A DNA stretch of 64,000 nucleotides, from assembly GCA_965207445.1 (NCBI GenBank), contig CBDBLX010000002.1, positions 1,943,849 through 2,007,848 on the forward strand. Reading direction: 5' to 3'. The DNA is from Nitrosopumilus sp. Its GTDB lineage: Archaea; Thermoproteota; Nitrososphaeria; Nitrososphaerales; Nitrosopumilaceae. This document shows positions 9,401 to 33,545 of the stretch, piece by piece (position 1 is the first letter of the stretch; every line of letters begins with the position of its first letter). The notes below the pieces were generated by a model, which was not told the origin of the DNA, did not search any database, and saw only the letters and a list, made by a program, of their open reading frames with translations. Position numbers and translations under genes: made by a program.

Positions 9401-12400
9401 GCAGCGTCACGGCCGCTCCTGGCACGGCAGACGGGCTGACAAACGCCCCCTCCTGAACCCTGAGCAATATAATGTCCCCTAGGGCATCTATCTGTGAGAT
9501 CTGTGCAGGTGTAAGTGTGATTAAGACGCCCATACCACCACCCGTTGCTTGCGCCATCTCTGCGCCGCCAAGTGACACGTCCCGGCTCGTGTCATCTATA
9601 CTGTCGGTGACGGAGAGTTTTTCAAGGTTCGTCAACTCTGCAACGACTGCGTTGCTAAAGCTGACAAGCAGCGTGCGCACGGCGGGCGCCACGTTCATAG
9701 TGGCATTTGACGCATGGGGCGGCGGCGTGGTGATCTCTGCTGTGTCCAGTACGACGGAGGTTTTGTCCATAGGATTTCCTGACACGTCAGAAAACGTGCC
9801 CTCTGATGCTACCAAATACAACACGGACTGCCTCAGGTTCAATATGTCTCTGCGTTGCGTGTCGGTGATCTCCAACACCACGTCCTTGCCGTCAGATATA
9901 GTACGTATGGTGGAGTTGGCAAGCCCCACAGCAACCGTGCCATTGGAATCACCTGAGACTGCCAGTCCCCGTATTGCAGTAGCAGAGACGTCGACTGTTT
10001 CATCAAAGGAGATCAACAGAGTGCGTCCCTGTGTGTTTATGGTAGCGCCCGTAATTATAGGCGGGGCCGTGTCGTTGCGTATAATTATCGGGTTATTAAC
10101 GTCTTCTGCGCTCTCAATGCCATTTACAGTGATGACTGCGCCGGCATCCAAGTCGAGCTCAAGTGGGCGAGTCATATCAAGAACCTGTAGCCTCTGCTCT
10201 TCTGTCATCTCTATTACAAGGATTGGTCCGTCGTCTTGCGATGACGATACTGATGCCTCTGTCAACTGCACGCCGCCAGACGACGCGCCGCGCTCGCGTA
10301 TGTAAAACTTTGACGTGTCGACGTGATCAGCAGGCGTTGCATCAACTGCCACACTGAATGTAACACGGAGTTCTCGGCTGCCAGAGTCCAGATCAATGAC
10401 TGCCAGGTCAGCCTCTGTCGGCGTTATGTCCTCCACAGTTATCATAACAGACGCGTCCACCTTATTTTGCGCCATATCCGTAGCAGAGACCGTGACCGTG
10501 TGCGTGCCGGCCGCAAGTTGATGCGTGATGCTCATCTGGTTGTCATACTGTGGCAGTTCAGTGCCGTCTGCGCTCCAGGATATAGATGGTATCTCAATGT
10601 TGTCAGATATCTGGGCCTCAAACCGTATGGGCTGCAGCGAGTGGAATGAACCGTCGGCAGGCGATATGATGTCTACAGAAGGCAATATCCCGTCAACAGA
10701 TATAGTACTGGTAAACGCCAGCGGTCCGGACTTGCTAACAGGCGGCTGCGGGTTTATCTGCATTGTCAGCTCGGGGGGCGGGAGGTCAGGTAGTACGTCT
10801 CTGAATGGATGTGATGCTGCCTTTATGGCAGCACCGTCAGGAAACCTCAGCGAGTCAGCAGACACATAGTTGAGATCCATAGTATAGTCACCGTCTTGCA
10901 CCAAATATGAAAAGACGAGTTGCGCAGTACCGTTGCCACCATCATATCTGGCAGTTCGGTCAGCCGCGCCCGTCTCCAGATCTAGCACGGGTGTGCCCGT
11001 GACATGTACAGGCTCAGAAAAGTGAACATTAATGAACACCTGCCTGCCTGCGCCATACGTCTCCTCAGTCTGGGCGCCTGACACACCATAAGCAAGGATG
11101 TCTCTGTCCCAGAACAGCACGTACACGGCCCCCCTCGCGCCCACGGCAACCTCGGGGGCGCCGTCGCGGTCCAAGTCACCTATAACAGCAAAGGATAAGC
11201 CAAACTCGCGGACGTCATCGCCTATTGCATGCATCGCCCGGTTAATCTCATATGAGCCCTTTATACTCCCATCTGAGTTCAAAAGTAGCATGTGGACGGT
11301 ACCGGCGTTGTTCACACCATCTCTGTCTGCCCCAGGGGCCCCTACTGCGACATCCGGCGTCCCGTCGCCGTCCAGATCGCCCGCGGCCCCGACGGACAGT
11401 CCAAAGTCGTCGTTTGCCCGTATCGCCGGGGCATTTTCTGACGAGGCGTCTAGTTTTAGGACAGACTTTACAGATATCGTGCCGCCACCGCCACCACTGC
11501 GCTCAAGCAGTATTACATGCACGGCCTCATCGTACCCCGAGCTCACATTGTCGTGGTTAAAGGAGCTGTCCGAGGGATGCGATCCGGACACCAAATCTAT
11601 CATGCCATTACCGTCGATGTCACCGACGGCAGCAAGCGAGAATCCCAACCCTGCGCCGTCTGCGAGGTCAAAGCCGCGTGCGCTGTCGCGGTTTATCTCG
11701 GCCACGTGCTGCGCGCGCACCTGCTGGCCGCCTGACCCACGGTCCAGCGAAAGTATATGTATAGCGCCACTAGCACGGGGGCCGTCCCCGTTGGCTCCGA
11801 CTGCCACATAGACAGTCTTGTCAAAATCCAGGTCGCCCAGAACTGCCAGCGCGGACCCAAAGTTGTCGCTCACCCTTATGCGACCCTCCTGGCCCCGGAC
11901 GCTGGGATCAAGGCCTGCCAAATTCTGCGGGCCAAAAGAAGATGTATGGTTTACCGTGCCGTCTGGGTTTAGCAATCGCACCTGGATCTCTCCGCATGTG
12001 CCAGGATTGCATACGGGGTTACCAGCTTCCGGGACGCCCACCAATATATCCGTGGTGCCGTCACGGTTGATGTCTCCTATGTTGACAGCGGATCTTCCAA
12101 ACCCCGCAGAGTGAGTGGCTTGACCGACGCTGCTCTTGACTGTGCCGTTTGGGTTCATAAATGCGATGTGAAATCCAGAAGGCGTACGGTCAAAAATATT
12201 CCGAGTGCCGTACGATCCCACGGCAAGATCCGGGGTGCCGTCGCGGTTCAGGTCTCCTAGCCCAGCCACTGCCGTATTGTACACCGGAGCCCTTTTACAG
12301 ATATTTATGTCCAGGGAAAAGCATTCATACCCTCTATGATGTAGTATTCGGTGCACCTCAAACAGTTGTATCTCAGTGCTGTCGCCCAACTCTTCGCTGG

Positions 12401-18580: not shown

Positions 18581-21049
18581 ATGTCGTACCAAAGTTTCGA
18601 TCTTTACAAAGAGATCATAAAAGACACGGACCACGATTATCACAAAAAACAGGTAAAGGATAGGTTAGAGCCATACCTGAAATATCTCCAATTGGTAACC
18701 AAACACTACAGAGAAAATCCCATAGTGTTTAATTACATATATGATCAACCTCAGGGAATCAAACCAAAGCGAAAGATACGACAGGACGAACCCGTATGGA
18801 TTCAACTGGGTGAAATGAGCGATGAAGATCGACGATATATTCTAGACGGGGACCATGTAAAACATGTGCATGAGGATGTGGACAAAGATCAGGATGATGA
18901 AGTAAAAATAAGTGTCATACAACGCGACGTTGCCGGAAGATTGCAGCTGGCGCGCAGGCCGAGAACTAAAAAGCTGAGAGTATATCGCATTATATACACG
19001 ATAATGACGCAGATAAAGGCCGTAAAGTCTTTGCTGCATCGACCAAAACCGGAGAATTCCCCTCTGCTAAAGCTCTTTTACGACAGAGACCACGTGGCGT
19101 TGGAAGACATGGAAGAACAACACATAGACAAATGGTTTGTTTTGGACGGGCGCGATGGCTCTGACCGGCAGAAGGAATTCGTGGAAAAGGCTCTCGCCAC
19201 TCCGGACTTTGGATTTTTGGAAGGGCCGCCAGGCTCGGGCAAAACTACCGTACTCTGCGAGCTGGTTCACCAGCTCGTGCATCAGGGAAAACGCGTGCTG
19301 TTCTGCGCGTCAACCCACATAGCGGTGGACAACCTGCTGGAAAAGATCACCAACGAGTACACAAGAAAACCTACAGACTCCAACATCATCCCACTGAGGG
19401 TGGGTGTCTCGGAAAAGATTTCCGACCTCGTACGCGGGTACACGTACGACACCTGCATAAAGACCATGCAAGAAAAGATATCCAACCATCTTGAGGACGT
19501 TTCCGACAAAAGCGAGGCGCAAAAGGCCCTGTATGAGCAGCTCCGATCGGACGATACTATAGGAAACATAGCACGTGACTGCGCAAACCTTGTGTGTGGT
19601 ACGACCATGGGCATACTCCAGCATCCCGACATCAAAAACGGCAACGCGGGTATGTTCGACGTCATGATAATTGACGAGGCCTCCAAGACCACGTTTCAGG
19701 AGTTTCTGGTTCCGGCTATGCACGCCAAGCGCTGGATAATAGTAGGCGATACCAAGCAGCTTGCACCCCACACAAGTTCGGAAGAGTTTGGCCTGCATGT
19801 CAACGCATGCATCGGGCGCGAGGAAGGTCAAGCGTGCCTCGACGCGTTTCTAGCCGCCAGTCAAGACCAACGCATCATAGCAACTGTGGAAAGCCAATCT
19901 GCAAAGAATGCCTACAGTCGCCAATGCGACAAACACGGGGTCGCCCTGCATGACGCCGATGACAAGCCGCCGGAGCGCGCATGGAAAGGAATCGTAGTGG
20001 GAACAGCAGATTCCATATCGAAGGCAGACGACGGATTTTTCCAAAGTGTCAATCCCAAGCGCGACATAATCCGAGGGTACGACGAGATACGTGCCCATTT
20101 AAATCGACAAAAGCGTAGAATACCGCGGGTGATACATCCTATGAAGAATGGTTTGGACAAAGACCTGACATGGGGGGCGCAGATGGCGTGGCGGATCATA
20201 TCACTGTCCGGACACGAGAGCGGCTCGGAACACTATGCCAGTCAAGCGATCGAAAAGCTCATGCCGGCAGACGACAAGGATACACGTCTCAGACTGGAAG
20301 ATGTCAAAAAGATCGCGCTACCGTCGATTTTACATCTGCTTCAGCATGGCTATGGGACAGGAGAGAATACGATCATGACGGAAGGTATTCCGGAACAAGA
20401 CTTTGCAAAACGGCACGTGCTTTTGCAGCAGCAGTACAGAATGCACCCGGAGATAGCAAAATTTCCCAGGACATACGTGTACAAGGGACGAGCGCTTGAG
20501 ACTCCAAAAGCAGTAGGATTCGAACGCGAATGGTCATACAGGGAATACGAAAAAAGATCCGTCTGGATCGACGTCAAGGATGCATCCCAGAACAGCTCTG
20601 AAGCCGAGGCCGAATGTATAATGAATGAGCTGGAAAAGTTTTACGGATTCGCGATCAAAACCAAGCCAGGCCGCGGCCTGCCGTGGGAGGTGGCAATATT
20701 GACGTTTTACACAAAGCAACAGCAAACCATACTGTCCCACATCAAAAAGATCGCTCGGGCCAAGAACGGGTACGAATTCGCGCTGATGGATGACAGGAAG
20801 GAGATCGTGACCGTCCAATGCCGCACGTTGGACTCCTTTCAGGGATACGAGGCCGACGTGGTTTTCTTGAGCATCGCAAACAACCACCCGACACTCTTTC
20901 TTGAAAATCCCAACCGCATCAACGTCGCGATAACAAGGGCACGGTACCAGAACGTGATCGTGGGGGACAAAAAAGCCATGAGTAGTTCGAGATCGTTGAT
21001 GGGCAGGTTTGCCATGAACACGCGTGTACACAGGGGCTGCAAATCATGA
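18581..21049 (+). CDS. Superfamily 1 helicase, UPF1/DNA2/NAM7-like (AAA_11/AAA_12)
   Basis: EGPPGSGKT Walker A, ASTHIAVDN, IIDEAS, IVGDTKQLAP, QYRMHPEI, TLDSFQGYEAD, NRINVAITRAR. Confidence 0.9.
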   Translation: MSYQSFDLYKEIIKDTDHDYHKKQVKDRLEPYLKYLQLVTKHYRENPIVFNYIYDQPQGIKPKRKIRQDEPVWIQLGEMSDEDRRYILDGDHVKHVHEDVDKDQDDEVKISVIQRDVAGRLQLARRPRTKKLRVYRIIYTIMTQIKAVKSLLHRPKPENSPLLKLFYDRDHVALEDMEEQHIDKWFVLDGRDGSDRQKEFVEKALATPDFGFLEGPPGSGKTTVLCELVHQLVHQGKRVLFCASTHIAVDNLLEKITNEYTRKPTDSNIIPLRVGVSEKISDLVRGYTYDTCIKTMQEKISNHLEDVSDKSEAQKALYEQLRSDDTIGNIARDCANLVCGTTMGILQHPDIKNGNAGMFDVMIIDEASKTTFQEFLVPAMHAKRWIIVGDTKQLAPHTSSEEFGLHVNACIGREEGQACLDAFLAASQDQRIIATVESQSAKNAYSRQCDKHGVALHDADDKPPERAWKGIVVGTADSISKADDGFFQSVNPKRDIIRGYDEIRAHLNRQKRRIPRVIHPMKNGLDKDLTWGAQMAWRIISLSGHESGSEHYASQAIEKLMPADDKDTRLRLEDVKKIALPSILHLLQHGYGTGENTIMTEGIPEQDFAKRHVLLQQQYRMHPEIAKFPRTYVYKGRALETPKAVGFEREWSYREYEKRSVWIDVKDASQNSSEAEAECIMNELEKFYGFAIKTKPGRGLPWEVAILTFYTKQQQTILSHIKKIARAKNGYEFALMDDRKEIVTVQCRTLDSFQGYEADVVFLSIANNHPTLFLENPNRINVAITRARYQNVIVGDKKAMSSSRSLMGRFAMNTRVHRGCKS

Positions 21050-21762
21050 ATAGGATAGAGATAGACACGGAGATCAATCTGAAATGCTACATAGTATATG
21101 CCGAGATATCCGTACCCGCACGCCGATATATTTTACCAGTGCTATTACATGTGAGGGATATGGAAGACGAAGCCGATGCAAAATCACTCTCATCTGAGCT
21201 CTTTCCTGGAATGGAGTCGGTAAGCAAGAGGCTACTCGAGATTTGCAAAAAGGAGAAGATGGTAGAAGAGTATGATGGTCAATACTCCATATCACGGGCA
21301 GGCGAGAATGCCATCGAAGACGACAAGGTCTTTGTACGTAGCCCGGGTCGGATGTACAAGATATACTATACCGACTCTACAATAATCCCGGAAGAAAGCA
21401 GAGTGGTTCGACTAGATACGGATCCGGAAGAGGCAGGATACGACCCGAACAAAACAGTAGGGGTGTGCGACCTACCGTGGCATCTGACAGATCTAAAATG
21501 CAGCATCCTAAAACCCCTGTTTGGGTGCATGCAGGGCGAGTTTAGAATCGATAGCATACACCACCGGGCCAAGGAACTGGAACCGGATCACATGACACTG
21601 TCGCTCCGCCTCGTGGATGACTCCGTGACGGGCCCTGATCTATATGAAAGAAGGAATGACCATAACATCTCCGGAAGATTCCACGTTTCGGCCAAGATGG
21701 CTGGGGAGACCCGCGAGATGTCCGACCGCGACGGATCTATTGTACTTCCCCCCACCCCATGA
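21046..21762 (+). CDS. Helicase-coupled hypothetical protein with possible winged-helix segment; C-terminus possibly disrupted
   Basis: ATGA overlap with helicase stop; ELFPG..KRLLEIC..KMV....YSISRAGE is wHTH-like; last codons run into a 24-bp repeat. Confidence 0.65.
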   Translation: MNRIEIDTEINLKCYIVYAEISVPARRYILPVLLHVRDMEDEADAKSLSSELFPGMESVSKRLLEICKKEKMVEEYDGQYSISRAGENAIEDDKVFVRSPGRMYKIYYTDSTIIPEESRVVRLDTDPEEAGYDPNKTVGVCDLPWHLTDLKCSILKPLFGCMQGEFRIDSIHHRAKELEPDHMTLSLRLVDDSVTGPDLYERRNDHNISGRFHVSAKMAGETREMSDRDGSIVLPPTP

Positions 21763-22473: not shown

Positions 22474-22678
22474 CTAGTGGATGACGACGTTACTGACTGC
22501 GACCTGTCCAGCACAAGGCCGGGCACACCACCTGTGAAGTTTTTTGCGCGGCCAGCCAACCCTCTCCATTTCCTCGTCCAGATATGTGAACAGGTTTTTT
22601 CTACTGCGTCTCAGGCGCGCCGTGTTTATAACGATGAAGTGGACACCGGAATCAGCGTAGTGCCTGTTCCTCCTTCTG
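22474..22678 (-). pseudogene. 3' part of DUF559/Vsr-like endonuclease gene split by IS66
   Basis: Across the TSD the frame continues ...DRRRNRHYADSGVHFIVINTARLRRSRKNLFTYLDEEMERVG..., matching paralog RNGHYAKAGIPCVVLKS...LDRELERLG at 31470-31982. Confidence 0.85.
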
Positions 22679-23183
22679 GCAAGCGTTCACCCCCCCTCCC
22701 CCTAGCTAGGTACAGGGCAGCCACTTACGGTGAGCGAATGCGTGGCTATGCGTGCTCATGGCACGTAAGGTGGAAGAGAGGTTACGCGTGTGTCATTGCA
22801 GCTAGAATACGTAGGGTTTGATTGACTTGCAAATGTTCTCGACCCGATTGGTGGTGTAGTGGTGGTGTAGTTGTTGTGTAATTTGCCAGCTTGTCATACC
22901 CTATCAAAAATCTGTATGTTAGTGGATCTACAGTGCGCTTTGCACCCGGACAATTCCAATAAAATCGCTCATACTTAATAAATGTAACTGCGCTCTTACC
23001 AAAAGTTACATATAGGGCCATCCAAATGGAATTATTATGATTAGAACCAAGAGGATGACATTATGAATTTACTGAGGGCTGTTATCAATCTATTGTTTTC
23101 AAAAAAGCGAACCATTCAGTTTCAGAGGCGATGGGACATGCAGACAAGAAAGGCAGAGTTGCATGATATGACGATGAGAGGGT

Positions 23184-25325
23184 GTGAGTGTAATGAGTAA
23201 TGCTTCTGCCACCGCACGTGAGAATAAGATTTTACGCGATAAACTCGCGCACATGTGGAAGTTTGTAAACGTCATAATGGAAGCATGGGGGGAGCAGGCT
23301 GCCATGTTCATCGATGAGATCAAGAGACTTGAAGGCAAAGTCGAGAGTCTGAAAACATACTGTGATGAACTCAAAGAACAACTGCAAGATGCAAAAAGGC
23401 TTTTAGCAATGCATGAGAACTATAACAACCCCGACAGGGGGACGAAGACTGCCCATGATAGGCAGAAACACAGACAGGCGTTGAGAGTCGAGAGTGAAGA
23501 GAATGTGCAGTGCGCCATGGATGTGGAAAAGGAAAAAAGCAGTAGAAAATCCGGCCTGCGGCATCGCGGCGGCCAGCCCGGTTCAAAGGGCATGTCGTGT
23601 GGCCTAAAACCAGACAGGAAACTAGATGATTTATGCGCGCCCGAAACATGCGTCCGGTGCGGCAGAACTGACATCATACATTTAGGATTCCTATGGAAGA
23701 TGGTACTTGAAATACGCGAGTATGGCGACCGGTTCTGCACAGACCCAGGACCATTTGAGAATCCCAAAGAGATGGTGGAGAATTTGCACATGAACGGCGC
23801 ATTGTTTGCCTATATGGAGGCATCAGTTCCTGCAATCTGCTTGCAGTGTGAGGTGATCATCTACCCAGAGACGCCGTCGATCCCAGGATCGTCGTGCGGA
23901 CCGATCTTGCGCGAAAAGATCATGAACCTGCACGGGCAAGTGCCACCCGTGCAGCGCATACACAATATACTTGCCGCAAACCATCATACTGAGATCGGCA
24001 CAGGTACCATCTCAAAGTGCCTAAAGGCGATATCACAACACGCTACGCATGACTGTTTGTGGGTAAAGGCACCCCGTGATATGATCGAGGATGTAAAGGC
24101 GGCCTATGGTACTGATACAAAGAACTCAGAGACATCTACTAATGAAATGGTCGCATATACTGAACAAGATGATAATGGTACAGAGACAATCATAATGACT
24201 GCACACTCTGAGCCTCCTGTTGCCATGTTCTGTCAACAACCTGCAGCAGCAAAACCACCAAAACTAAAATCCGAAGACTCTCCCCTACCTGAGATGGCGC
24301 CTGTACCGGATACTATACCTGACACACACATGCACAGCGTCCTCCCGCCACTATTCACCCAGATATACGAGATGATCACAATGGCCCCCAATATTATGTG
24401 GGACGAGTCAAATGCAAAGGTAGCAGGACACCGTCGGCAGACGCTCGTACTGCTCTGTCCCGGAATTGCCACCCTGATAAAAATTACAGACAGTAAATCA
24501 AAAAATCTTATACAATACATGTTCCCGGATCTGCTTGGCAGACCTCTCCAGGCCGACATGTATCTTGCAGGCAATGCGTTTGATGGTGACATACAGACAT
24601 GCCGTGTACACTTGTGGCGTCGAGGCGAGTCGTTGGCAGTATTGCATGGCATCCACTCACCAGAGCAGACGTACTCTGAAGAGCATCTCAATATATTCAG
24701 ACTCTCAAAACGCGCAGGTGAACGCATAACCCAGCTGGCCGGCGGCCCGCTCACATCTATCTGCGAGGTTGACAGTGTGATTCGAGCCATACCTGGACTT
24801 TCACAAACAATAAGTGATGAGGTCGACGTACTAAACACCCGCATGCTCAAATTGATAGACGCGTACCGGTATGGTGAGGTCTCTGATGAAGACACGCGCA
24901 AATACGCCACCTCACTTGAGAACGCACTACCATACATGTTTACATTTCTGTGGCATCCGGGCATGCAAGGTCACACAAATGACATTGAGCGACTCATCAA
25001 GAAATGTAACGTATTGCCGCGCAAGATGCAAGGGGGGCTTCCAGACTGGACGGCTGCAAAAACGCAGGCCAACCTGCAGACCATACATGCAAACTCTGCC
25101 CTGTGGGGCGTATTCTCAGGACAATTGGTATCAGGATATCGCGGCAGTTGGAAGCCGCCGCCATCAAATTCAATCACAATAATGTCCCCGTCGTCGTCAC
25201 CATCACAGAGACCGCGTCCACATGTCACCGAAAAATGTATCACGAAATCATCTGATCCATTAATACAGGCACACGACCTCATCTGCATACCAAAATCACA
25301 AAATGTCAAGGTCGCTGCCGCATGA
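23184..25325 (+). CDS. IS66-family transposase (TnpC-like)
   Basis: N-terminal coiled coil, RGGQPGSKG, CVRCG..CLQC Zn finger, WDES, QTCRVHLWR, TNDIER motifs; uninterrupted ORF. Confidence 0.88.
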   Translation: MSVMSNASATARENKILRDKLAHMWKFVNVIMEAWGEQAAMFIDEIKRLEGKVESLKTYCDELKEQLQDAKRLLAMHENYNNPDRGTKTAHDRQKHRQALRVESEENVQCAMDVEKEKSSRKSGLRHRGGQPGSKGMSCGLKPDRKLDDLCAPETCVRCGRTDIIHLGFLWKMVLEIREYGDRFCTDPGPFENPKEMVENLHMNGALFAYMEASVPAICLQCEVIIYPETPSIPGSSCGPILREKIMNLHGQVPPVQRIHNILAANHHTEIGTGTISKCLKAISQHATHDCLWVKAPRDMIEDVKAAYGTDTKNSETSTNEMVAYTEQDDNGTETIIMTAHSEPPVAMFCQQPAAAKPPKLKSEDSPLPEMAPVPDTIPDTHMHSVLPPLFTQIYEMITMAPNIMWDESNAKVAGHRRQTLVLLCPGIATLIKITDSKSKNLIQYMFPDLLGRPLQADMYLAGNAFDGDIQTCRVHLWRRGESLAVLHGIHSPEQTYSEEHLNIFRLSKRAGERITQLAGGPLTSICEVDSVIRAIPGLSQTISDEVDVLNTRMLKLIDAYRYGEVSDEDTRKYATSLENALPYMFTFLWHPGMQGHTNDIERLIKKCNVLPRKMQGGLPDWTAAKTQANLQTIHANSALWGVFSGQLVSGYRGSWKPPPSNSITIMSPSSSPSQRPRPHVTEKCITKSSDPLIQAHDLICIPKSQNVKVAAA

Positions 25326-25486
25326 CTTTTTAATATAATCAGATTATTGTAAAACTTGCCCCATATTATGCCATTTTTGTACCGTCCACACACTCCCCAC
25401 CGTTGACACTACTAACACAATAAACAAACTGGCCGTGCCGCCACCATCCAATCCGATGTTTTTGCCTTGAACAACGTGACGCTGTA

Positions 25487-25521
25487 TGTTACCTGCATGT
25501 TACCTGCATGTTACCTGCATG
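25487..25521. repeat. 11-bp tandem repeat x3 inside IS66 3' region
   Basis: atgttacctgc atgttacctgc atgttacctgc. Confidence 0.8.
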
Positions 25522-25620
25522 GCCACCATATCACATACCATAACGCCTGTCCGATATCTGTCTAAGGTGGCAGCGTAAGTGGGTGAGAGTTGAGGGGAGG
25601 GGGAGGGGGTGAACGCTTGC

Positions 25621-25918
25621 TCCTTCTGTCCCTTGCCGCAACGTCCCTTGATTCATGTATGCTGCCGTCCAGCTCAATTATCAGAACCAGTTCTCCGTCT
25701 TGGTCGGTCACTACTATGTCTGGAGTGTGGATGAGGCGCGTTTTTGACAGGGCGGATATGTCTATGCGGTTCATGTGCTCCCCATGTATCTTACGGCCGC
25801 GGCGGGTAAACTCCACGGTACACTCTTGTCTTATCTGACCCATCCGTATTCTGTAGTATTTCCTAAGATGCTTTACAATGGCGAATATGGGGCCGCTGTC
25901 ACTGTATCTCTCATCCAC
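25621..25918 (-). pseudogene. 5' part of DUF559/Vsr-like PD-(D/E)XK endonuclease gene directly downstream of viperin (probable GTG start 25918)
   Basis: HTPDIVV..LIIELDGSIHES motif; aligns with 31470-31982; truncated at IS66 right end. Confidence 0.8.
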
Positions 25919-25946
25919 GTGCGCGTCGCGTGTGCGCTTGTTCCTC

Positions 25947-26816
25947 CTAGTCCCAGTCGTAAAGACCCCCCCTTTCCTCAAATTTGTTTGTGTCGATCCT
26001 CACGTCCTTCAGGGCATCGGCTATTCCGACTTCCAAAATCGGGCGACTGTACGAGTACCTGCCGTCCACGTTGTCAAAGAACCGCCCCAATGGATCTACC
26101 ATAGCATAGCTGCCAGTCATCATGTCGTTGTCCTCCGGTATGACTACTATGCCCTCCCGTTCTATCCGCCTGTGCCGTTCCACATACGCCTTGAACTGGT
26201 TCGCTGTTACTTGGAAGCTGTGCATGGACTCGTCGTTCTGTCCCGCCACCGTCAACGCTTGCATGATCTTCCACCTTTCTGGCTCTGCTGCCCTGATGAA
26301 CCCGGACATGTCCTCCTCGTGGTTGTATAATGTGACCACGGTGTTGATCTTTAACCTGACTCCGTGCATCTTTATGGATCTGGCAGTCCAGAGGTACTCT
26401 TCTGCAGTTATGGAGCCCAGACTCGTGGCGCGTCCGGACATCTCATTTGTTACGGGCCTGATACTGTCTACACTGAGCGCAACCCAGTCCAAGCATCGGT
26501 GCATGCTTTTAAGCCAGTCCTCCGTCATCCTGCTCCCGTTGGTAACTATGGATGTGGTCATGCCACCGTACTTGGCTTCCTTGATTAGATCATCCAGCCC
26601 GGGATACAGCATAGGCTCTCCACCTGCAAAGTTGATCTTTTCATATCCCGCGTCTGCAAGCAATCTGACGATCTCCACGACCTCTTCTGATCCGAGATTC
26701 TTGTGTGACAGATTCGCGGCATAGCAGTGGCCGCAGCTCATGTTGCATGCTTGCAACAGATGATAGTTTACCGACGGAATTGCCACTGTTGTCCGGTCGG
26801 ATATCTTTTTATTCAT
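25947..26816 (-). CDS. Viperin-family antiviral radical SAM enzyme (prokaryotic viperin, RSAD2-like)
   Basis: SVNYHL..CNMSCGHC, KINFAGGEP, TSIVTNGS, LSVDS, LKINTVV, PERWK..Q, GQND, EDNDMMTGSYAMVDPLGRFFDN, YSRPILEVG, F.ERGGLYDW. Confidence 0.95.
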   Translation of the reverse strand: MNKKISDRTTVAIPSVNYHLLQACNMSCGHCYAANLSHKNLGSEEVVEIVRLLADAGYEKINFAGGEPMLYPGLDDLIKEAKYGGMTTSIVTNGSRMTEDWLKSMHRCLDWVALSVDSIRPVTNEMSGRATSLGSITAEEYLWTARSIKMHGVRLKINTVVTLYNHEEDMSGFIRAAEPERWKIMQALTVAGQNDESMHSFQVTANQFKAYVERHRRIEREGIVVIPEDNDMMTGSYAMVDPLGRFFDNVDGRYSYSRPILEVGIADALKDVRIDTNKFEERGGLYDWD

Positions 26817-26850
26817 ACATGATATCTAACACATACAGCTTGATGTATAT

Positions 26851-26960
26851 TCTCAAGTGGGCCACATAGTGTAAAATCGTGCGGAACTTGTATACCTGTT
26901 CATTTGACCCGCACCGCAATTATCTCAAGTGGGGCCACATAGTGTAAAATCGTGCTGAAC
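26851..26960. repeat. 37/38-bp direct repeat pair with 35-bp spacer (mini-CRISPR-like or operator) in viperin promoter region
   Basis: tctcaagtggg(g)ccacatagtgtaaaatcgtgc(g/t)gaac at 26851 and 26923. Confidence 0.8.
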
Positions 26961-27050
26961 GGCAAATTTGCCCAATCCAAGTTGCGCTGAGGCGCTTGTC
27001 TGTATTCGTCACAGTCAGACTCTAAGCCTACTACCCGTGTGTACGGATTG

Positions 27051-27155
27051 GAATGTGCCGTGTGTGCCAGAGTTATTTCTACAACCCCAAGCAGACGAGG
27101 CCGCGACCATGAAGAACAACTGAGAATGTGCTATGTATGCCAGAGTTATTTCTAC
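27051..27155. repeat. 32-bp direct repeat pair (3 mismatches), 73-bp period
   Basis: gaatgtgc..tgt.tgccagagttatttctac at 27051 and 27124. Confidence 0.75.
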
Positions 27156-27325
27156 GAGGGTGTTGTACTACAGGCTGTCAACCATGTGGTTGTCGCGTAA
27201 TTCGCCTCCATACTGACTGTGGTGGCTTTACATCCGGGCCGCTGAAACCAGTCTGAAGGCATCTTACGTACCGGCCTTACCAATATCGTAAAATTTTTAG
27301 ATGCTGCGAATCTGGCAATGGTGTA

Positions 27326-28369
27326 ATGGATGAGTCTCCCGCATATTATGACCATATAATGGAATTGCTGAAAACGCATGATGAACATCTGACCGTAGCC
27401 GACATCGTAAAACTGGCCGACAAGAATACCTTTTCAACTCGCAGGGCACTTAAGCGATTAATAAAAGACGGCATAGTTATGCGTGAGAGAATAGGCAAAA
27501 CAGATCATTACTACCCGGCGGAAGATTCTGCCGTCGAGATGGACAAATTTAATAACCTGATGAAAAAGCTAGATGATACTGTAGAAAACCTGAAGAAAGA
27601 TTTTCCAACATATCCTTCCAACATGTTGTATTTCATAAACGAGATAAGCTCTTCCGGTGTTACCAAGATAGAATCCATAAAAGACCATGTGAAGGTTGTA
27701 ACAACCGGTTACAAAGAACAACGGATAATATATGAAAAAGTCACTAGAGACATCAGATCTATGTGTCATAGGCACGTAAAAAATCCTCTTCTGATGAAGC
27801 GTCTGCTCTCATACGAGTCCGACGCCTACCAAGTCTTTCAAGAAACCGTCAAAAAGCGCCTAAGATTGGCAAAGAAACGAGACAATCTACACGCAAGTTC
27901 CCGAAAAAAAATCGCGAATCATATCGAAAAACTAGCCTACATAATGGACACGTTGGTTTATGATGCAGATCATGTAAAAGAATGCTTGGAGTTTGGTGAG
28001 GAAGTTCCCTACGACTACAAAGACTCGCGTGATGAATCAAGGGGAATACTGATCAACCTTGAACAAAAACGCGACATGCTCCGAGACAGTCTAGAGTCTG
28101 CAAAGCGATGGACAACTGCCTACAGGAAGGGCCACTCCGATGCAGTATTGGAAAACAAGCATCCGTCAAGTGAATTTGATGAAGCGGCCGGAAAACTGTC
28201 GGAGATGCAACAAGGCTTGAGAGACCTTGACATACTGATCCGGACAGGTATTGAGAAATCCATAGCGGAGGAAAAGGATTACGAATTGAGCGCTGTGCTC
28301 ACGGAAGTAGAGAAAAATCTGCAGGAATATAAGCGGAACTTGAGAGAGATTGCAGACGATACCGGTTAA
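27326..28369 (+). CDS. N-terminal winged-helix DNA-binding protein with long helical C-terminus, divergent from viperin
   Basis: IMELLK..LTVADIVKLADKNTFSTRRALKRLIKDGIVMRERIGKTDHYY wHTH pattern. Confidence 0.75.
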   Translation: MDESPAYYDHIMELLKTHDEHLTVADIVKLADKNTFSTRRALKRLIKDGIVMRERIGKTDHYYPAEDSAVEMDKFNNLMKKLDDTVENLKKDFPTYPSNMLYFINEISSSGVTKIESIKDHVKVVTTGYKEQRIIYEKVTRDIRSMCHRHVKNPLLMKRLLSYESDAYQVFQETVKKRLRLAKKRDNLHASSRKKIANHIEKLAYIMDTLVYDADHVKECLEFGEEVPYDYKDSRDESRGILINLEQKRDMLRDSLESAKRWTTAYRKGHSDAVLENKHPSSEFDEAAGKLSEMQQGLRDLDILIRTGIEKSIAEEKDYELSAVLTEVEKNLQEYKRNLREIADDTG

Positions 28370-28377
28370 AACCCAGT

Positions 28378-28485
28378 TATAGCGACAGGTATAAGTTTCC
28401 GTACAGTGAATTTTTGTGATTTCGTGCCCGAAATAATCACATGTGGCAAAGTCCAATTGTGAAAGCGTTACAGGAAATCACAATA
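28378..28485 (-). repeat. 108-bp dispersed repeat family B copy 2 (inverted relative to copy 1)
   Basis: tatagcgac...atcacaata = reverse complement of 22244-22351. Confidence 0.8.
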
Positions 28486-28486
28486 A

Positions 28487-29864
28487 CAGTAATTCGCAAT
28501 GTATTTTATATGATTTTATTTGAATAATCTACAATGTCGTTAAACGTTGATGATCATACTTGATCAGATCAAATAGAAAGTATAATATGTGGGAACATTT
28601 TAGTACCTCTGATTAAGTATGAAAAATGAGATACTAGAACATCAATATGAATTAGGACAAGTAAATTATAAAGTTTTACGAAAACGATTCAACGATCTCG
28701 GATTAAACATATCAACCAGATATAACCGCAAGTATGTGGTGGATGATTATCTTGGTACTTACTACCTTGTCGCTCAACAACATGTGCGTAAATGCAACAA
28801 CTCACAAAAGAAAACGCGATAAAACTAACTGTTTTAGAAAAAACGAGCGTATAAGCATACCATCTGAAAATACTGTGCTCAAATGCCTAAAGAGTGCAGA
28901 TCTAGAGCAAGTAAAACAATGGAGTGACGAGAACGTCAAAACTGTTTAACAATGCCAGAAAACACAACATGCTCAAAAAAGGCAGGCACTATTGTAATTG
29001 ATATGGCCGGATAAAAATATTATGGCAAGGCACTCAAACCTGAGATGCTAAAAACAAAGCCCAAAAATGGCACCGCGATTTCATTCATTTATGACAACAC
29101 AAATGCCAAATCAAGCAGGTAATTGTTTGCGCATCGTGTGACCAGTAATGACAAAATGGTCACAATTATGCGTAAAATCATTGAAAAATTAATTCGAGAG
29201 GATGCACGTCCGGAACTTGGCCTCTTTGATCGAGGTTTTTACAACGTTGCATGCATAGATGAACTTTTGCGCCTGCGCCTGTCTTTCATAATGTGGGCAA
29301 TCAAAAATAAGCGCATACAAAAACACATTTTAAAAGTTCACAACAAAAAGAGAAAAACTGCATCCGTCATTGAGATGCGTGACAAAAACAAAAAAGCAGT
29401 CAAATTTACATTACTTGTCGTCAAGAAAAAAAATAATGCCAAAAAAACTGATGACATAGTTGATCAGTATGTAGCATTTGCCACAAATATGAAAATCACT
29501 AGCAAAAGCAAACTCATCAAAACCATCCCAGAGACTTATTGTAGGCGTCAGATAATAGAGACGAGACATAGTGATAAAAAACACGACTTCAAAGACAACT
29601 AGCAACGCCTTGCAGCTTCGATTACTGTTGATATTTTTTGAATGTTATTATATGGTTTATGGGTAATGGCAATGTACGAAAATTACGGCTGACTTGTAGA
29701 TGAAAAATTATTCACAATGGATTATTTATGGATTCAATTGCCGGATCAATCAGAAGACTGCTTCGGCGGGAATTGGAGCACGGTGGTTCCTTGCCATTGT
29801 AAATCTATCGCACTGCATAATTAGAAATAAGATCATTAAAAATTGAGCACATTGCGAACTACTG
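28487..29864 (+). mobile_element. Decayed ISH3/IS4-like insertion sequence (~1.38 kb)
   Basis: TIRs cagtaattcgcaatgt (28487) and acattgcgaactactg (29849-29864), 15/16 match. Confidence 0.8.
28619..29691 (+). pseudogene. Fragmented ISH3/IS4-like DDE transposase
   Basis: Several frameshifted pieces; LFDRGFY, YVAFATN, Y..R..IET motifs. Confidence 0.8.
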
Positions 29865-29946
29865 ACATACAAAACTAGAATACTCGTTTGGGGGCAAACT
29901 ACATAATGCGGCGCCAGACCTGTTTACATTTGTCAAATATCCGGGC

Positions 29947-30210
29947 ATGCCACCTACCAACAACAAATTCGAACGAACACTGCGGTGGCGCGTCGTGATT
30001 CACAAAAAGATTCGTCAGATGTTTCGCAGTACAACAGGAATGGAAGTTTATGGCATATTGATGTCGTGCATGATGACAGGTTATTATCAGGACAAGGATC
30101 TTGTAAATAATATCCATGACATTATCATGGCAAGCTAAATCATTCACCAAATTTCATCACATAGCAGTAGATGTGTGTCGAGGTGTACATGTAGGGGGTT
30201 TAACTGTTAC
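29947..30210 (+). mobile_element. IS66-family 3' remnant (transposase C-terminus plus right end)
   Basis: PPTNNKFERTLR...KKIRQMFRS..GM motif; right end gggggtttaactgttac resembles the IS66 TIRs in this window. Confidence 0.7.
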
Positions 30211-30228
30211 GATCTAAAGCAGAGTACA

Positions 30229-31467
30229 TCAGATCAGACTTGAGGCAATATCTGCCATTCTAGAATGTTCACTACGCGAGAACCAGCTGCTCTCCACGAC
30301 TATAGGGATGCGCGCCCCTGTAGACTCGACGTACCCCCATTTCTCCCGTTCTGTGTGGATTTTTGTGCCCCGAAGTAGCATCAGCGGCCATGCGCGCACC
30401 TTGGGCACTCCCCGTTCCAAGCACCACTCTACAGAGTCACGAAAGCGCTCCACCGTCTGGAAGGGAAGCCCGTAGATCAGGGAGACCTCGTAAGGTATCC
30501 GCCGCCCGTTCAGTTTTGTGATGACATTCTCCACCGAGTCCATGTTGTTTGGCCTGCCGACGGCCCACGCCTCGTCGTCATGAACCGTCTGCAGGCCGAA
30601 CTCAAGCGTGACATCAAGCGGTTCGACCGCGTCCAGAAAGACGTCGGTAACCAGCTCAAAGCGACACTGTAGCGACAGATGAGCCCTAATGCGAATTTCC
30701 TTCAGACAGTCCAGTAGTTCCATCGCTCGCTTGACATCTGTGTTGAAGATCGGATCCAGCACGGCAATCTTGCGCGTCCCGGCATCGCGAAACGCGGACA
30801 TCTCGCGCCGCAGGCGTCCCGTCGCCAGATTTGCGTTGCGAAGGCGGGCTCCGGGCTGCTTGTGCTGGCAGAACGTGCAGGTAAACAGACAACCGCGCTG
30901 AGTCTCCCACCGTACAAAGTCGCTTATCGGAGAGGTGCCGTCAAGGTGCGGCGAGTGCAACGCGTTTAGCGGAAAGTCGGCCCTAGTGCAAAGGTCTGGC
31001 ATTCCTGCAACATGGATTCCATGCAAGCCATTCTCCGCGTGTCCTACGGCCAGCGACACCATCGCAAGCTCTCCGTTCCCGCGTACAAAATAGCGGGCTC
31101 CGGGATACAGTTGCTCAAGTCGTCCCGGCCCTGTGTATGAGACCTGCGGCCCCCCGAGCACCACGTCGACCTTGGGGCAAAGTGCGCGCAAAAGCACATG
31201 TACCTCCGGCTCGCACCACACAAAGGCACTGATTCCGACCAAGACTTGGGCCCCAACCTCAGAGATGGCTTCCGTGACGCGGTCGAGGAAGGTATTCATA
31301 GAGAATTCCGGTTTATTTACCGCGTCCGTGACGATCCTGACATAACTCCCATAGGCACGGAGGGACGAAGCGATCGATGCGGCGCCCAGTCCGAAGGGTG
31401 GATCCCCTTTCCTCAACCAGTCCAGTGAGACCAGAATAACCGGACGCGGTGGCACTGATCGTGGCAC
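30229..31467 (-). CDS. Cobalamin-binding (class B) radical SAM enzyme (probable GTG start 31467, ~412 aa)
   Basis: B12-binding part (LGAASIAS..VGISAFVW..VVLGGPQVS..GNGE), WETQRGCLFTCTFC CxxxCxxC, LEFGLQT, LIYGLPFQT; GGAGG 10 nt before GTG, 2 nt after upstream stop. Confidence 0.88.
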   Translation of the reverse strand: MPRSVPPRPVILVSLDWLRKGDPPFGLGAASIASSLRAYGSYVRIVTDAVNKPEFSMNTFLDRVTEAISEVGAQVLVGISAFVWCEPEVHVLLRALCPKVDVVLGGPQVSYTGPGRLEQLYPGARYFVRGNGELAMVSLAVGHAENGLHGIHVAGMPDLCTRADFPLNALHSPHLDGTSPISDFVRWETQRGCLFTCTFCQHKQPGARLRNANLATGRLRREMSAFRDAGTRKIAVLDPIFNTDVKRAMELLDCLKEIRIRAHLSLQCRFELVTDVFLDAVEPLDVTLEFGLQTVHDDEAWAVGRPNNMDSVENVITKLNGRRIPYEVSLIYGLPFQTVERFRDSVEWCLERGVPKVRAWPLMLLRGTKIHTEREKWGYVESTGARIPIVVESSWFSRSEHSRMADIASSLI

Positions 31468-31469
31468 TG

Positions 31470-31982
31470 TCAGGGTCCTCCTGTTCGGTTTGACCTGGCC
31501 CGGGCGAGAATGGACTGGATGTGCAGTCCAGCCGGTTTTCTCATTCCGAGCCTTTCCAACTCCCGGTCCAATCTCTCGGCCATGCACGTCCGGCTTGAAC
31601 GTATCTCGGAGCTCTTCAGGACGACGCACGGAATGCCGGCCTTGGCGTAGTGGCCGTTCCGTAGTCTGTTCCTTATTGCAAGAGCCGCCGACTCGTGTAT
31701 CATGCCGTCCTGCTCTACCACGAAGAGTAGTCCACCCGCGCCGTCAGTCACCGCGAGGTCGGGGGTGTGGACTAGCCCTTTTATCCACTCGGTCTGTCCG
31801 ATCTTGTGCGTTCCGAGCAGCTTGTAACCTCCGGCACGAAACAGTACACGGCATTCGATCAGTATTTGGGAGGCCCGTATCTTGTGCTCCTTTCTCAGGT
31901 ACTTCTTGATCTTGAAGACTATGTCAGAGTCGAGTCGTTCGCCACCCAATCCGTTCCGAAATTTCTTTGGATTGACCTTCAT
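31470..31982 (-). CDS. DUF559/Vsr-like PD-(D/E)XK endonuclease, intact paralog of the viperin-linked gene
   Basis: HTPDLAV..VVEQDGMIHES..RNGHYAKAGIPCVVL. Confidence 0.78.
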   Translation of the reverse strand: MKVNPKKFRNGLGGERLDSDIVFKIKKYLRKEHKIRASQILIECRVLFRAGGYKLLGTHKIGQTEWIKGLVHTPDLAVTDGAGGLLFVVEQDGMIHESAALAIRNRLRNGHYAKAGIPCVVLKSSEIRSSRTCMAERLDRELERLGMRKPAGLHIQSILARARSNRTGGP

Positions 31983-32294: not shown

Positions 32295-33545
32295 ATGAAG
32301 GACCACAATTGGGACGATTCAACGCCGTTCGAGGCTACGATCTCCAAAGCTGCCGCTCGGAAGATTAAGTTTAGCAGCAAATGGGACGATTCAACGCCGT
32401 TCGAGGCTGAAACGTACGTGGATCAACCGTACGGTCAGCGGGTGAAGCAGGGCCTTACGATTGACAGAAGCAGTAACAATTCTAACGCTTACGACGATAT
32501 GATTCTCTTAGAGATGAGTGATGGCAAGATGCCCCTGGATCGTCTGTCCCTGCTATCAGGACCATTATACAGATTGCGCCGCAAGAATGACTGGAACACT
32601 AAGCGGTGGGCCAATGCCCAAATGGCAAAGCAAACCAATGCTGACAAACATATGATTGATCTCTTTACACCAATCCTGCTTGACATGTTGTCGTATGATC
32701 CGCCCACGGCAAGGGACTGGAAGAACGTATCCGAGAAAAATGAAAAACAGGTACGACGGACGGAGGAATATTATCAGCACATGATAAGCAAACCGAATAG
32801 TGGGATACGGTTGATACTCTGGGAAAAGGATGGGAGCATTTCCACATACCCCAAAAGGATCGTTCGGGATGATGTCTGCGACTCCCGCGTCGCCGAAATT
32901 GCCACACCATATTCCAGTCCCACAGTTAGCGACGCGTCATTTGATCCAAGGGTGTTTGTCGACGAGATATATGTCAGGAGAGAAAGGCGGTTCTGGAAGA
33001 ATGCCTTGCGTGTGCTGTCCAGATGGCTGGAAGGAGGGGGCCGCATGCGACCACAAAAAGCAGGGTGGCTCCCGTACCATATCGTAAACAACGACATCGG
33101 ATTACACGTCCTCTTTGACAATCTTTCTGTGGAGTACGAATCGCGCTGGCTGAATACTCTAGGCGCAAAGTCTCAAGCCGAGTTTTGCAACGGAAGCATA
33201 CGAATCTTCGGCGAGGACATGTATCTGGGCGGGACAGTTCCGGATCCCTACGGCCTGGACAATGCGAAGAAGGCAGTCGAAGAGCACGAGTCTTTTCTTG
33301 CCGACTTTGGGAAAGAGGTGCCCGAAAACCTCCAACATTTTATGATTCCTCAAGACAAGATGAGTGAGCGCATACGCGATCTGATCATGGAAGCCGCCGT
33401 CGAACTAAAGCCACAGCGGGTCGAGCCGGACAGGGTTTTCGATGTCCGACGGCTTTGTTCTCGAACTGCCTCTGCAGACGAGTGGGATCTTGTCTGCATG
33501 GCTCTTGCATCCAGCAGTCTGCAGTCGAAGAAACTAGAAAGTTGA
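32295..33545 (+). CDS. Hypothetical protein (416 aa) with duplicated N-terminal WDDSTPFEA motif
   Basis: Long ORF, upstream TATA-like cttatata; 27-bp perfect repeat at 32310 and 32382. Confidence 0.65.
   Translation: MKDHNWDDSTPFEATISKAAARKIKFSSKWDDSTPFEAETYVDQPYGQRVKQGLTIDRSSNNSNAYDDMILLEMSDGKMPLDRLSLLSGPLYRLRRKNDWNTKRWANAQMAKQTNADKHMIDLFTPILLDMLSYDPPTARDWKNVSEKNEKQVRRTEEYYQHMISKPNSGIRLILWEKDGSISTYPKRIVRDDVCDSRVAEIATPYSSPTVSDASFDPRVFVDEIYVRRERRFWKNALRVLSRWLEGGGRMRPQKAGWLPYHIVNNDIGLHVLFDNLSVEYESRWLNTLGAKSQAEFCNGSIRIFGEDMYLGGTVPDPYGLDNAKKAVEEHESFLADFGKEVPENLQHFMIPQDKMSERIRDLIMEAAVELKPQRVEPDRVFDVRRLCSRTASADEWDLVCMALASSSLQSKKLES

Follow-up and report, generated by a model that had tools for sequence, protein, structure and literature searches.

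The window examined here, a 64,000-nucleotide stretch of a Nitrosopumilus sp. genome (assembly GCA_965207445.1, contig CBDBLX010000002.1, positions 1,943,849 to 2,007,848 of the forward strand), carries two separate gene pairs within a defence-type island of this thaumarchaeon, each pair consisting of a radical S-adenosylmethionine (SAM) gene and one of two paralogous small genes with a Vsr-type nuclease fold. The four genes, a viperin with small gene copy 1 and a B12-type radical SAM gene with small gene copy 2, lie on the minus strand between 25.5 and 32 kb (Table 1), at the positions given by an earlier model-made reading of the sequence, the first-pass annotation. Profile matches and coordinates bear out its description of a viperin followed by a DUF559/Vsr-like gene, with a paralogue of the latter 2 nt ahead of a B12 radical SAM gene. 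The best explanation, held with slightly better than even confidence, is that of two pairs in which the B12-type enzyme is the archaeal PDC-M51A and likely a second kind of viperin-like enzyme. Judged from sequence, the arrangement appears to be an archaeal variant of known or candidate defence modules, the defence role of the B12-type pair being a prediction. The viperin family and PDC-M51A as a listed candidate are already known; new are the archaeal form of PDC-M51A, with a nuclease replacing the kinase, an accessory gene common to the B12-type enzyme and viperin within one lineage, and a wider pattern of small nuclease-type partners (Vsr-type, PIN and HicA-like) beside radical SAM enzymes that are predicted to modify nucleotides.

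Table 1. Features of the two gene pairs and of their surroundings, in positions of the window (HMM, hidden Markov model; IS, insertion sequence; HTH, helix-turn-helix; ORF, open reading frame)
Feature	Position	Strand	Evidence
Prokaryotic viperin (pVip), 289 aa, CxxxCxxC	25947..26816	-	NF038283, PADLOC pVip, Pfam Radical_SAM
Small Vsr-type nuclease-fold gene copy 1, N-terminal part up to IS boundary	25621..25981	-	HTPD...ELDGxxH motif; family HMM positions 1-109
IS66-like insertion, 2,942 bp, splitting copy 1	22679..25620	.	Inverted repeats, target duplication, in-silico excision
Small gene copy 1, C-terminal part, displaced by IS	22474..22678	-	Family HMM positions 106-148, E 4.6e-8; translation
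B12-type (class B-like) radical SAM enzyme, 412 aa, GTG start, archaeal form of PADLOC PDC-M51A	30229..31467	-	PDC-M51A, Pfam, fold
Small Vsr-type nuclease-fold gene copy 2, intact, 170 aa	31470..31982	-	Paralogy, motif, fold
416-aa protein, no known family, divergent from copy 2	32295..33545	+	Homologues recur beside small genes
HTH and coiled-coil protein between both modules	27326..28369	+	Weak HTH matches; weak PDC-M05A match, 23.6 bits
Decayed DDE transposase fragments between both modules	28619..29602	+	ORF list; DDE_Tnp_1, 25 bits for 29123-29602
SF1 helicase matching Mokosh MkoA, island context	18581..21049	+	PADLOC MkoA 6.2e-84, 281 bits; AAA_11 and AAA_12

The identity of the B12-type enzyme rests on agreement between profiles and fold. 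Copy 2 ends in a TGA stop codon, which is followed after a 2-nt gap by the GTG start (31467) of the radical SAM gene; a longer listed ORF beginning at 31629 was rejected as an artefact of an upstream in-frame GTG, homologues being 408-418 aa long and the 412-aa form fully covered. The protein matches PADLOC PDC-M51A (PDLC04689) over positions 5-411 of 420 (E 7e-144, 477.7 bits), Pfam Radical_SAM (PF04055) at 44.6 bits, and Pfam B12-binding (PF02310) at 33.0 bits against a cut-off of 32.1. It has the architecture of class B, an N-terminal B12-binding domain joined to a CxxxCxxC radical SAM core, and the cluster cysteines C193, C197 and C200 are invariant in 25 sequences. Members of the family number 1,026 at E <= 1e-10 among 7,995 candidates scored, and span phyla (Pseudomonas, Myxococcota, Planctomycetota, Poseidoniales and others) with 38-67% identity to the archaeal protein.

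A profile search of PDB sequences places CysS (2e-25) and TokK (8e-22) first, and in a fold search with the predicted model (pLDDT 90.8) the nearest structures are again TokK (E 1e-22, query-normalised TM-score, TMq, 0.77) and CysS (TMq 0.78), followed by TsrM, AprD4 and MgmA, and then by OxsB (E 2e-12, TMq 0.70-0.73). With the class B C-methylases TokK (7kdx) and CysS (9n1b) the window enzyme shares a B12-binding Rossmann domain and a radical SAM barrel, but identity is only 19-20%, the window enzyme is ~240 residues shorter (412 versus about 650 aa), and its family sits by a kinase or a nuclease, not in an antibiotic cluster. The best NCBIfam matches, to KedN5, lipid and PhpK-type methylases, all fall far under their cut-offs. 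The protein model thus points to a class B radical SAM C-methylase architecture minus the C-terminal domain, and the protein is probably a cobalamin enzyme; the window's genome carries a CobS gene (145.5 bits), so cobalamin is plausibly available. OxsB (5ul2-5ul4) has its overall architecture in common with the window enzyme, is more distant than TokK, CysS, TsrM, AprD4 and MgmA, and was not recovered by the profile search of PDB sequences at E <= 0.001. This enzyme of oxetanocin synthesis, which has an HD-domain partner, OxsA, acts on deoxyadenosine phosphates and provides a precedent for nucleotide chemistry in the class. With pVip, homology is restricted to the radical SAM core (viperins appear at E about 5e-6 and TMq 0.4), and the N-terminal B12-binding domain is present in the B12-type enzyme, unlike pVip.

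The PDC systems comprise 145 putative phage defence candidates whose genes lie embedded within BREX, DISARM and type I restriction-modification loci, and a figure legend of the same source names 'SAM' and 'dNK' among the multi-gene examples (10.1101/2024.01.29.577857). In PDC-M51 the A component is the radical SAM protein and the B component a kinase; the window protein matches A over its full length, and bacterial relatives carry B. Neighbours were examined at 80 B12-enzyme loci from species-representative genomes, taken with 7-kb flanks of which some end at a contig edge; ORFs were called mechanically by a simple script, which is noisy in GC-rich bacteria, and the kinase profile was built from four downstream ORFs. 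A kinase lies directly downstream, on the same strand, at 37 of these 80 loci, and these kinases score up to 254 bits against PDC-M51B and also match Pfam Thymidylate_kin and dNK as well as PADLOC VakA, which is read here, from the name of the model and its number adjoining the pVip models, as a viperin-associated kinase. Linkage of viperin to a kinase is documented (10.1101/2023.09.13.557418). When all neighbours were clustered against one another, the kinase was the only widely shared partner, the other large clusters being antisense shadows of the enzyme or the kinase, and no biosynthetic cluster recurred around the B12-type enzyme in the 80 loci. At six Pseudomonas loci there are two further genes, one for a 730-aa ankyrin protein and one of 90-113 aa that matches the PADLOC 'HicA-like' model (78 bits), which is itself numbered among the pVip models. 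Like pVip, the B12-type enzyme has its radical SAM core accompanied, in defence islands, by a kinase resembling thymidylate kinase and at some loci by a HicA-like gene, and it is chiefly this sharing of viperin's accessory repertoire that suggests a viperin-like role with a nucleotide as substrate.

A scan for defence neighbours covered 113 flanking ORFs at 16 bacterial loci, chosen by taking alternate loci among the 34 whose 7-kb flanks are complete (L072 and one ORF were dropped for size). Other PADLOC families (E <= 1e-10) were found within 7 kb at 10 of the 16, among them LeoA (583 bits), a retron reverse transcriptase (RT)-Toprim protein (732 bits), IetA/IetS, JukA, SoFic and PbeA, a count that stands without a baseline rate and is consistent with defence islands, not a measured enrichment. 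Some of these loci are organised as cassettes. At Pseudomonas loci L011-L015 and L072 (about 4470-8790) ankyrin-repeat, HicA-like, B12-type radical SAM and kinase genes form a four-gene unit, and at L016-L019 (about 5237-9640) a longer, near-identical cassette surrounding the enzyme and the kinase, and including a ParE-like toxin-domain gene and three unknown upstream genes, is shared by Pseudomonas, Halopseudomonas and Sphingopyxis, pointing to a mobile unit that passes between genera. The bacterial enzymes nearest to the archaeal ones, with 66-67% identity, are those of L003 and L004, from a gammaproteobacterial metagenome-assembled genome (MAG) and a Pseudomonadales MAG; they too are without a kinase, and have different unknown genes of 732 aa and 80 aa upstream.

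The thaumarchaeal form differs from bacterial PDC-M51 in having the small Vsr-type gene upstream in place of the B kinase. No kinase (PDLC04690/PDC-M51B) or remnant of one was detected in six frames of the window and of loci L001, L002, L007, L052 and L080 (best E 2.9); elsewhere in the window's genome PDC-M51B finds weak, housekeeping-level matches (55 bits), and the model has matches in 13 of 14 control genomes. Thus, where pVip has a partner kinase, the thaumarchaeal B12-type enzyme has a Vsr-type nuclease. Other described systems were compared and set aside: Ophion (radical SAM, PHP and PRTase) differs in architecture from the window pair in the available part of its description; the HXS system has a peptide-maturing radical SAM enzyme, and no peptide gene recurs around the B12-type enzyme; and the radical SAM protein in a paper on Pseudomonas aeruginosa hotspots is a flanking core gene. 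No radical SAM system was noted in the part of the DefensePredictor preprint available, and literature searches combining radical SAM, B12, anti-phage, viperin, cobalamin and kinase returned no paper on this family, while VakA with viperin returned only unrelated papers.

The two small proteins of the window are 44% identical over 105 residues (E 2e-22), which indicates paralogy rather than chance. They belong to a narrow, thaumarchaeal family, for which one search gave 28 clusters at 90% identity and another 125 representatives at E <= 0.001 among 1.84 billion proteins, the latter almost without exception stand-alone proteins of 130-210 aa. An alignment of 18 members shows conservation of DS...LRK in an N-terminal helix, HTPD, E90-x-D92-G-x-x-H96 and an RN-HY-AGIP stretch, with HTPD, D75, E90, D92 and H96 invariant. 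An AlphaFold (AF2) model of copy 2 (pLDDT 75.5), compared by an exhaustive structure aligner, finds as its best match the I-Bth0305I catalytic domain (Z 9.0, root-mean-square deviation 3.1, 96 residues aligned), followed by Vsr (1cw0, Z 7.0), the DUF559-type NGO0050 (3hrl, Z 6.9) and many other PD-(D/E)xK nucleases. Because these Z values are close to the aligner's stated background of 7-8, the nuclease-fold assignment rests on fold and motif together, and a fair label for the protein, given the model, is a predicted nuclease with a restriction-endonuclease-like fold and conserved acidic and histidine residues. A Foldseek search with the model had no match at E <= 0.001, and a search of PDB sequences with the family profile none at E <= 1.

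The small protein resembles Vsr, DUF559 and the EDxHD endonuclease I-Bth0305I (3r3p), all of the PD-(D/E)xK superfamily, in its fold and its 'PD ... ExDGxxH' pattern; unlike them, it has its own N-terminal helix with the invariant DS...LRK, and its family is narrow, stand-alone, below the Pfam DUF559 and DUF2726 cut-offs and without a sequence match in the PDB. No window protein reaches the cut-off of DUF559 (PF04480) or DUF2726 (PF10881): copy 1 has 18.9 bits against DUF2726 (cut-off 24.7), and copy 2 is without any Pfam match. PF10881 is precomputed for 11 of the 28 clusters, and a protein within reach of the family HMM is assigned to DUF559 by Pfam. The initial label 'DUF559/Vsr-like' is hence apt at the level of fold and motif but not as Pfam family membership. 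Searches of metagenome and viral sequence were negative: the small-protein alignment gave 176 pattern matches in metagenome contigs and 83 in viral contigs, and the B12-enzyme alignment 5 in viral contigs, none of which was confirmed. PHROGs had no match for 7 window proteins and for two of three locus proteins scanned, the third, a 652-aa HTH protein of L116, having weak HTH-type matches only.

Where the small gene sits was determined from samples of 401 genomes at class and at family level; the sampled genomes are related to one another, and all counts are those of samples (L-numbers denote sequence loci and G-numbers sampled genomes, L002 being G227 and L007 being G207). The class sample has small-gene matches in 20 of 401 genomes, at 28 places, and the family sample has the close subfamily (E <= 1e-25) in 9 of 401 genomes, at 14 places. 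Upstream of every one of the four thaumarchaeal PDC-M51A genes found (the window, L001, L002 and L007) there is a small gene on the same strand, separated from the enzyme gene by 2-51 nt or overlapping it. Of the 80 B12-enzyme loci only the three of thaumarchaeal type have the small gene, in each case immediately upstream. In the family sample, three genomes encode a true PDC-M51A orthologue (over 460 bits), each with the small gene upstream; in a further fourteen the only B12 enzymes are distant ones, about 650 aa long. The small proteins linked to the B12-type enzyme group in the tree as a single clade, with 94/97 support. L001 lies on a contig labelled as a Poribacteria MAG and carries a thaumarchaeal-type small gene with a B12 enzyme 79% identical to that of the window, so that either the contig is mis-binned or the pair has moved between sponge-associated lineages.

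Association with viperin is looser. Viperin is present in six genomes of the family sample, and the small gene lies directly downstream of it in two, namely in the window's genome and in G336; the viperins of these two share 58% identity. In G135 and G350 a PIN-domain gene (L121:2321-2746 and L122:2321-2650, both on the minus strand) overlaps by 8 nt the start of viperin (1483-2328 in both loci), the G350 copy having a 31-residue internal deletion; with this gene, a small nuclease of another kind is coupled to pVip. Neither a small gene nor a PIN-domain gene accompanies the viperins of G186 and G320. The small gene is thus tied tightly and stably to the thaumarchaeal B12-type enzyme, and loosely and repeatedly to viperin, and is otherwise a frequent resident of mobile and defence neighbourhoods; distant members of its family sit near PolB and GINS genes.

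By its HMM matches the window viperin is an ordinary, full member of the pVip family, with 297.9 bits against NF038283 (cut-off 180) over profile positions 2-280 of 281, E 2.3e-87 against PADLOC pVip, 77.9 bits (1.4e-21) against Pfam Radical_SAM, and the cluster motif in the form CNMSCGHC. Its stop codon is overlapped for 35 nt by the ORF listed for copy 1 (25562-25981, 139 aa). This viperin-side small gene is insertionally broken in this genome: the last ~20 codons of the ORF run into the end of an IS, and the protein matches the family profile up to position 109, beyond which it has a proline-rich tail. A profile search of the window's genome found a third match to the small family, with profile positions 106-148 at 22549-22677, which is the displaced C-terminal part of copy 1, 2.95 kb away. 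The intervening element has terminal inverted repeats of 22 nt, 91% complementary, at 22679-22700 and 25599-25620, and is flanked by an 8-bp target duplication, TCCTTCTG, at 22671-22678 and 25621-25628, a duplication length typical of IS66. The transposase ORF inside it (23184-25325, plus strand) scores 58.1 bits against the IS66 family NF033517, and because this is under the cut-off of 180 the element is named only IS66-like. In-silico removal of the IS and one copy of the duplication yields a 185-aa frame that matches HMM positions 1-148 at 184 bits, whereas the truncated ORF scores 136 bits.

Another full copy of the IS, with 96% identity, is present elsewhere in the same genome. One contig, from one of four runs of one sample (run X1), joins 22669 to 25620 and skips 2,950 bases, exactly the IS plus one duplication; the shorter side of the joint is only 25 letters long, and the contig is a weak hint that some cells in the sample carry an uninterrupted viperin-nuclease pair. 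Within the IS, a segment of ~80 nt (window 22978-23057, IS positions 300-379) recurs at 74-86% identity at at least 20 other places in the genome, separate from the full IS copies, and may be a small repeat or an element resembling a miniature inverted-repeat transposable element. Three tandem repeats with 11-nt spacing (CTGCATGTTACCTGCATG) lie at 25482-25521, just inside the right end.

Distribution decides whether the two pairs form one system. The first-pass annotation had proposed a modular nuclease and radical SAM defence design in which the B12 enzyme either makes a different antiviral nucleotide or modifies the product of viperin, the second option being favoured by the distance of 3.4 kb between the pairs, their common strand and their paralogous accessory. 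This second option is not supported: viperin lies within 7 kb of the B12-type enzyme at none of the 80 other loci, G227 and G207 have PDC-M51A and no viperin at E <= 1e-30, G336, G135, G350, G186 and G320 have viperin and no PDC-M51A orthologue, and the two co-occur in the family sample only in the window's genome, where an HTH gene and decayed transposase fragments lie between the pairs. The two pairs are two separate modules, and a single pathway, already largely refuted by this distribution, is scarcely credible. Other parts of the annotation fared better. Its pairing of a nuclease with a radical SAM enzyme recurs at four of four PDC-M51A and two of six viperin loci, but the viperin-side copy is broken here; its reading of the B12 enzyme as a defence-type nucleotide enzyme agrees with the PDC-M51A match and the kinase neighbour, but the family was already a listed candidate and 'new' was an overstatement. 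It had also suggested looking for co-occurrence of B12-enzyme homologues with viperins and defence genes, of which the latter turned up at 10 of 16 loci and viperin near none of 80, and had named two outcomes that would speak against it, a promiscuous nuclease gene and metabolic or tailoring clusters around the B12 enzyme; the former is seen (9 of 14 places), the latter do not recur.

The remaining features of the island concern its setting. The GC fraction is 0.387 at 28-30 kb of the window. Behind the MkoA-like helicase, and overlapping it, comes a 238-aa ORF that could be placed in no known family (together 18581-21762), and no phospholipase D (PLD)-type MkoB was seen. Homologues of the 416-aa protein stand beside small genes at L007/L085 (60% identity), L104/L105 (38%) and L106 (40%), in G207, G117 and G336; the protein has no match in Pfam, NCBIfam, PADLOC or PHROGs, and its best score in the ESM Atlas is 0.77. 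At L104 and L105 (G117:C1:810989 and 2673305) there are two copies of a pair made up of a 475-aa protein, homologous to the 416-aa protein, and a small gene, 97-99.6% identical, which looks like part of a repeated mobile unit.

Gene identities, arrangement, IS break, recurrence of both pairings, bacterial kinase link and folds are observations; substrate, chemistry, antiviral effect and the role of the nuclease are inferred. By means of its [4Fe-4S]/SAM site and probably cobalamin, the B12-type enzyme would alter a cellular nucleotide at carbon; the most likely change would be a methyl group on the sugar, given that the closest relatives of solved structure act as C-methylases, but a dehydration as for AprD4 or a rearrangement as for OxsB would be alternatives. 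The product would poison viral polymerases. The neighbouring kinase of bacteria would supply the nucleotide or phosphorylate it, the part that kinases play for viperin, and in thaumarchaea, in which the kinase is missing, the small nuclease would be coupled instead and would probably cut nucleic acid as a second, toxin-like effector, which is the weakest step of the mechanism. Since the accessory is also used by viperin, it would be a swappable part, and the two enzymes alternative cores. A stronger version, in which PDC-M51A is a second, independently evolved viperin-like lineage that makes, by cobalamin-type radical chemistry, carbon-modified nucleotides (sugar C-methylated ones, for example) able to block viral polymerases, with a shared accessory pool (a nucleotide kinase, or small nucleases of the Vsr, PIN or HicA type) and with the thaumarchaeal Vsr-type nuclease working as second effector, is put forward tentatively and well short of even confidence.

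A number of findings weigh against a viperin-like B12-type enzyme with the small nuclease as its functional partner. Literature searches found no experiment on PDC-M51, and its defence role is thus unproven. A kinase is lacking at 43 of the 80 loci, some of which end at a contig edge, and 6 of the 16 bacterial loci scanned have no other defence match, again without a baseline rate. The nearest solved relatives make antibiotics, not nucleotides, and cobalamin use is not certain, because the B12-binding domain is barely above its Pfam cut-off and AprD4, which we take to be a B12-independent relative, is among the fold matches. On the side of the small gene, pVips protect Escherichia coli when expressed alone, four of the six sampled viperins are without the small gene, the two small proteins linked to viperin do not group as sisters in the tree, and, copy 1 being broken here, viperin can persist without it. 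The viperins that lack it, together with the best fold match, which is the catalytic domain of a homing endonuclease, favour a small gene that is a selfish or addiction-type element (homing-endonuclease-like or toxin-like), landing beside radical SAM genes without a mechanistic part in them. Further in keeping with such an element are a tiny, stand-alone family; multiple copies, two to three per genome, in three genomes (the window's, G117 and G336), with two G117 copies 99.6% identical; and non-radical-SAM neighbours at 9 of the 14 close-family places, namely a type IIG restriction enzyme, a C5 methylase, TIR and HNH proteins, transposases and several unknown proteins. Against this reading, the small gene beside a radical SAM gene invariably shares its strand and either overlaps it or lies no more than 51 nt away, its position is kept at four of four thaumarchaeal PDC-M51A loci despite enzyme divergence to 69-76% identity, and the B12-linked proteins are in a single clade; other small nuclease-type genes (PIN, HicA-like) fill the equivalent place by pVip or PDC-M51A elsewhere, and the small gene was not found in the viral contigs or PHROGs searched. 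Selfishness is accordingly considered a serious contender but an unlikely one.

The B12-type enzyme could also be a metabolic or tailoring enzyme, a methylase of a natural product, cofactor, lipid or peptide, in a defence context that is incidental. TokK and CysS are C-methylases of antibiotic pathways, the best, far sub-threshold NCBIfam matches are methylases of this kind, and the 6 of 16 loci without a defence match are as such an enzyme would have them. This is improbable in view of the neighbours, which include LeoA, a retron RT, Iet, JukA and SoFic and no recurrent biosynthetic gene, the sole widely shared one being a nucleotide kinase; of the missing TokK/CysS C-terminal domain; of a patchy occurrence across phyla at high identity (40-67% to the archaeal protein); and of the listing of the family by PADLOC as a candidate embedded in defence systems.

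To our knowledge, viperin stands alone among enzyme families in defending cells by means of nucleotides that terminate chains, and antiviral drug development takes its products as leads. Accessories shared between viperin and the B12-type enzyme, the small gene in thaumarchaea and the kinase and the HicA-like gene in bacteria, are evidence from context that the two are functional counterparts, and the recurrence of such genes raises the question of why small nucleases are so often coupled to makers of nucleotide poisons. Methylation of unactivated carbon is the typical reaction of B12-type radical SAM enzymes, and among synthetic antivirals the C-methyl nucleotides are a proven class. If the proposed role is true, a second radical SAM family, of different chemistry, would extend what is known of how natural antiviral nucleotides are made.

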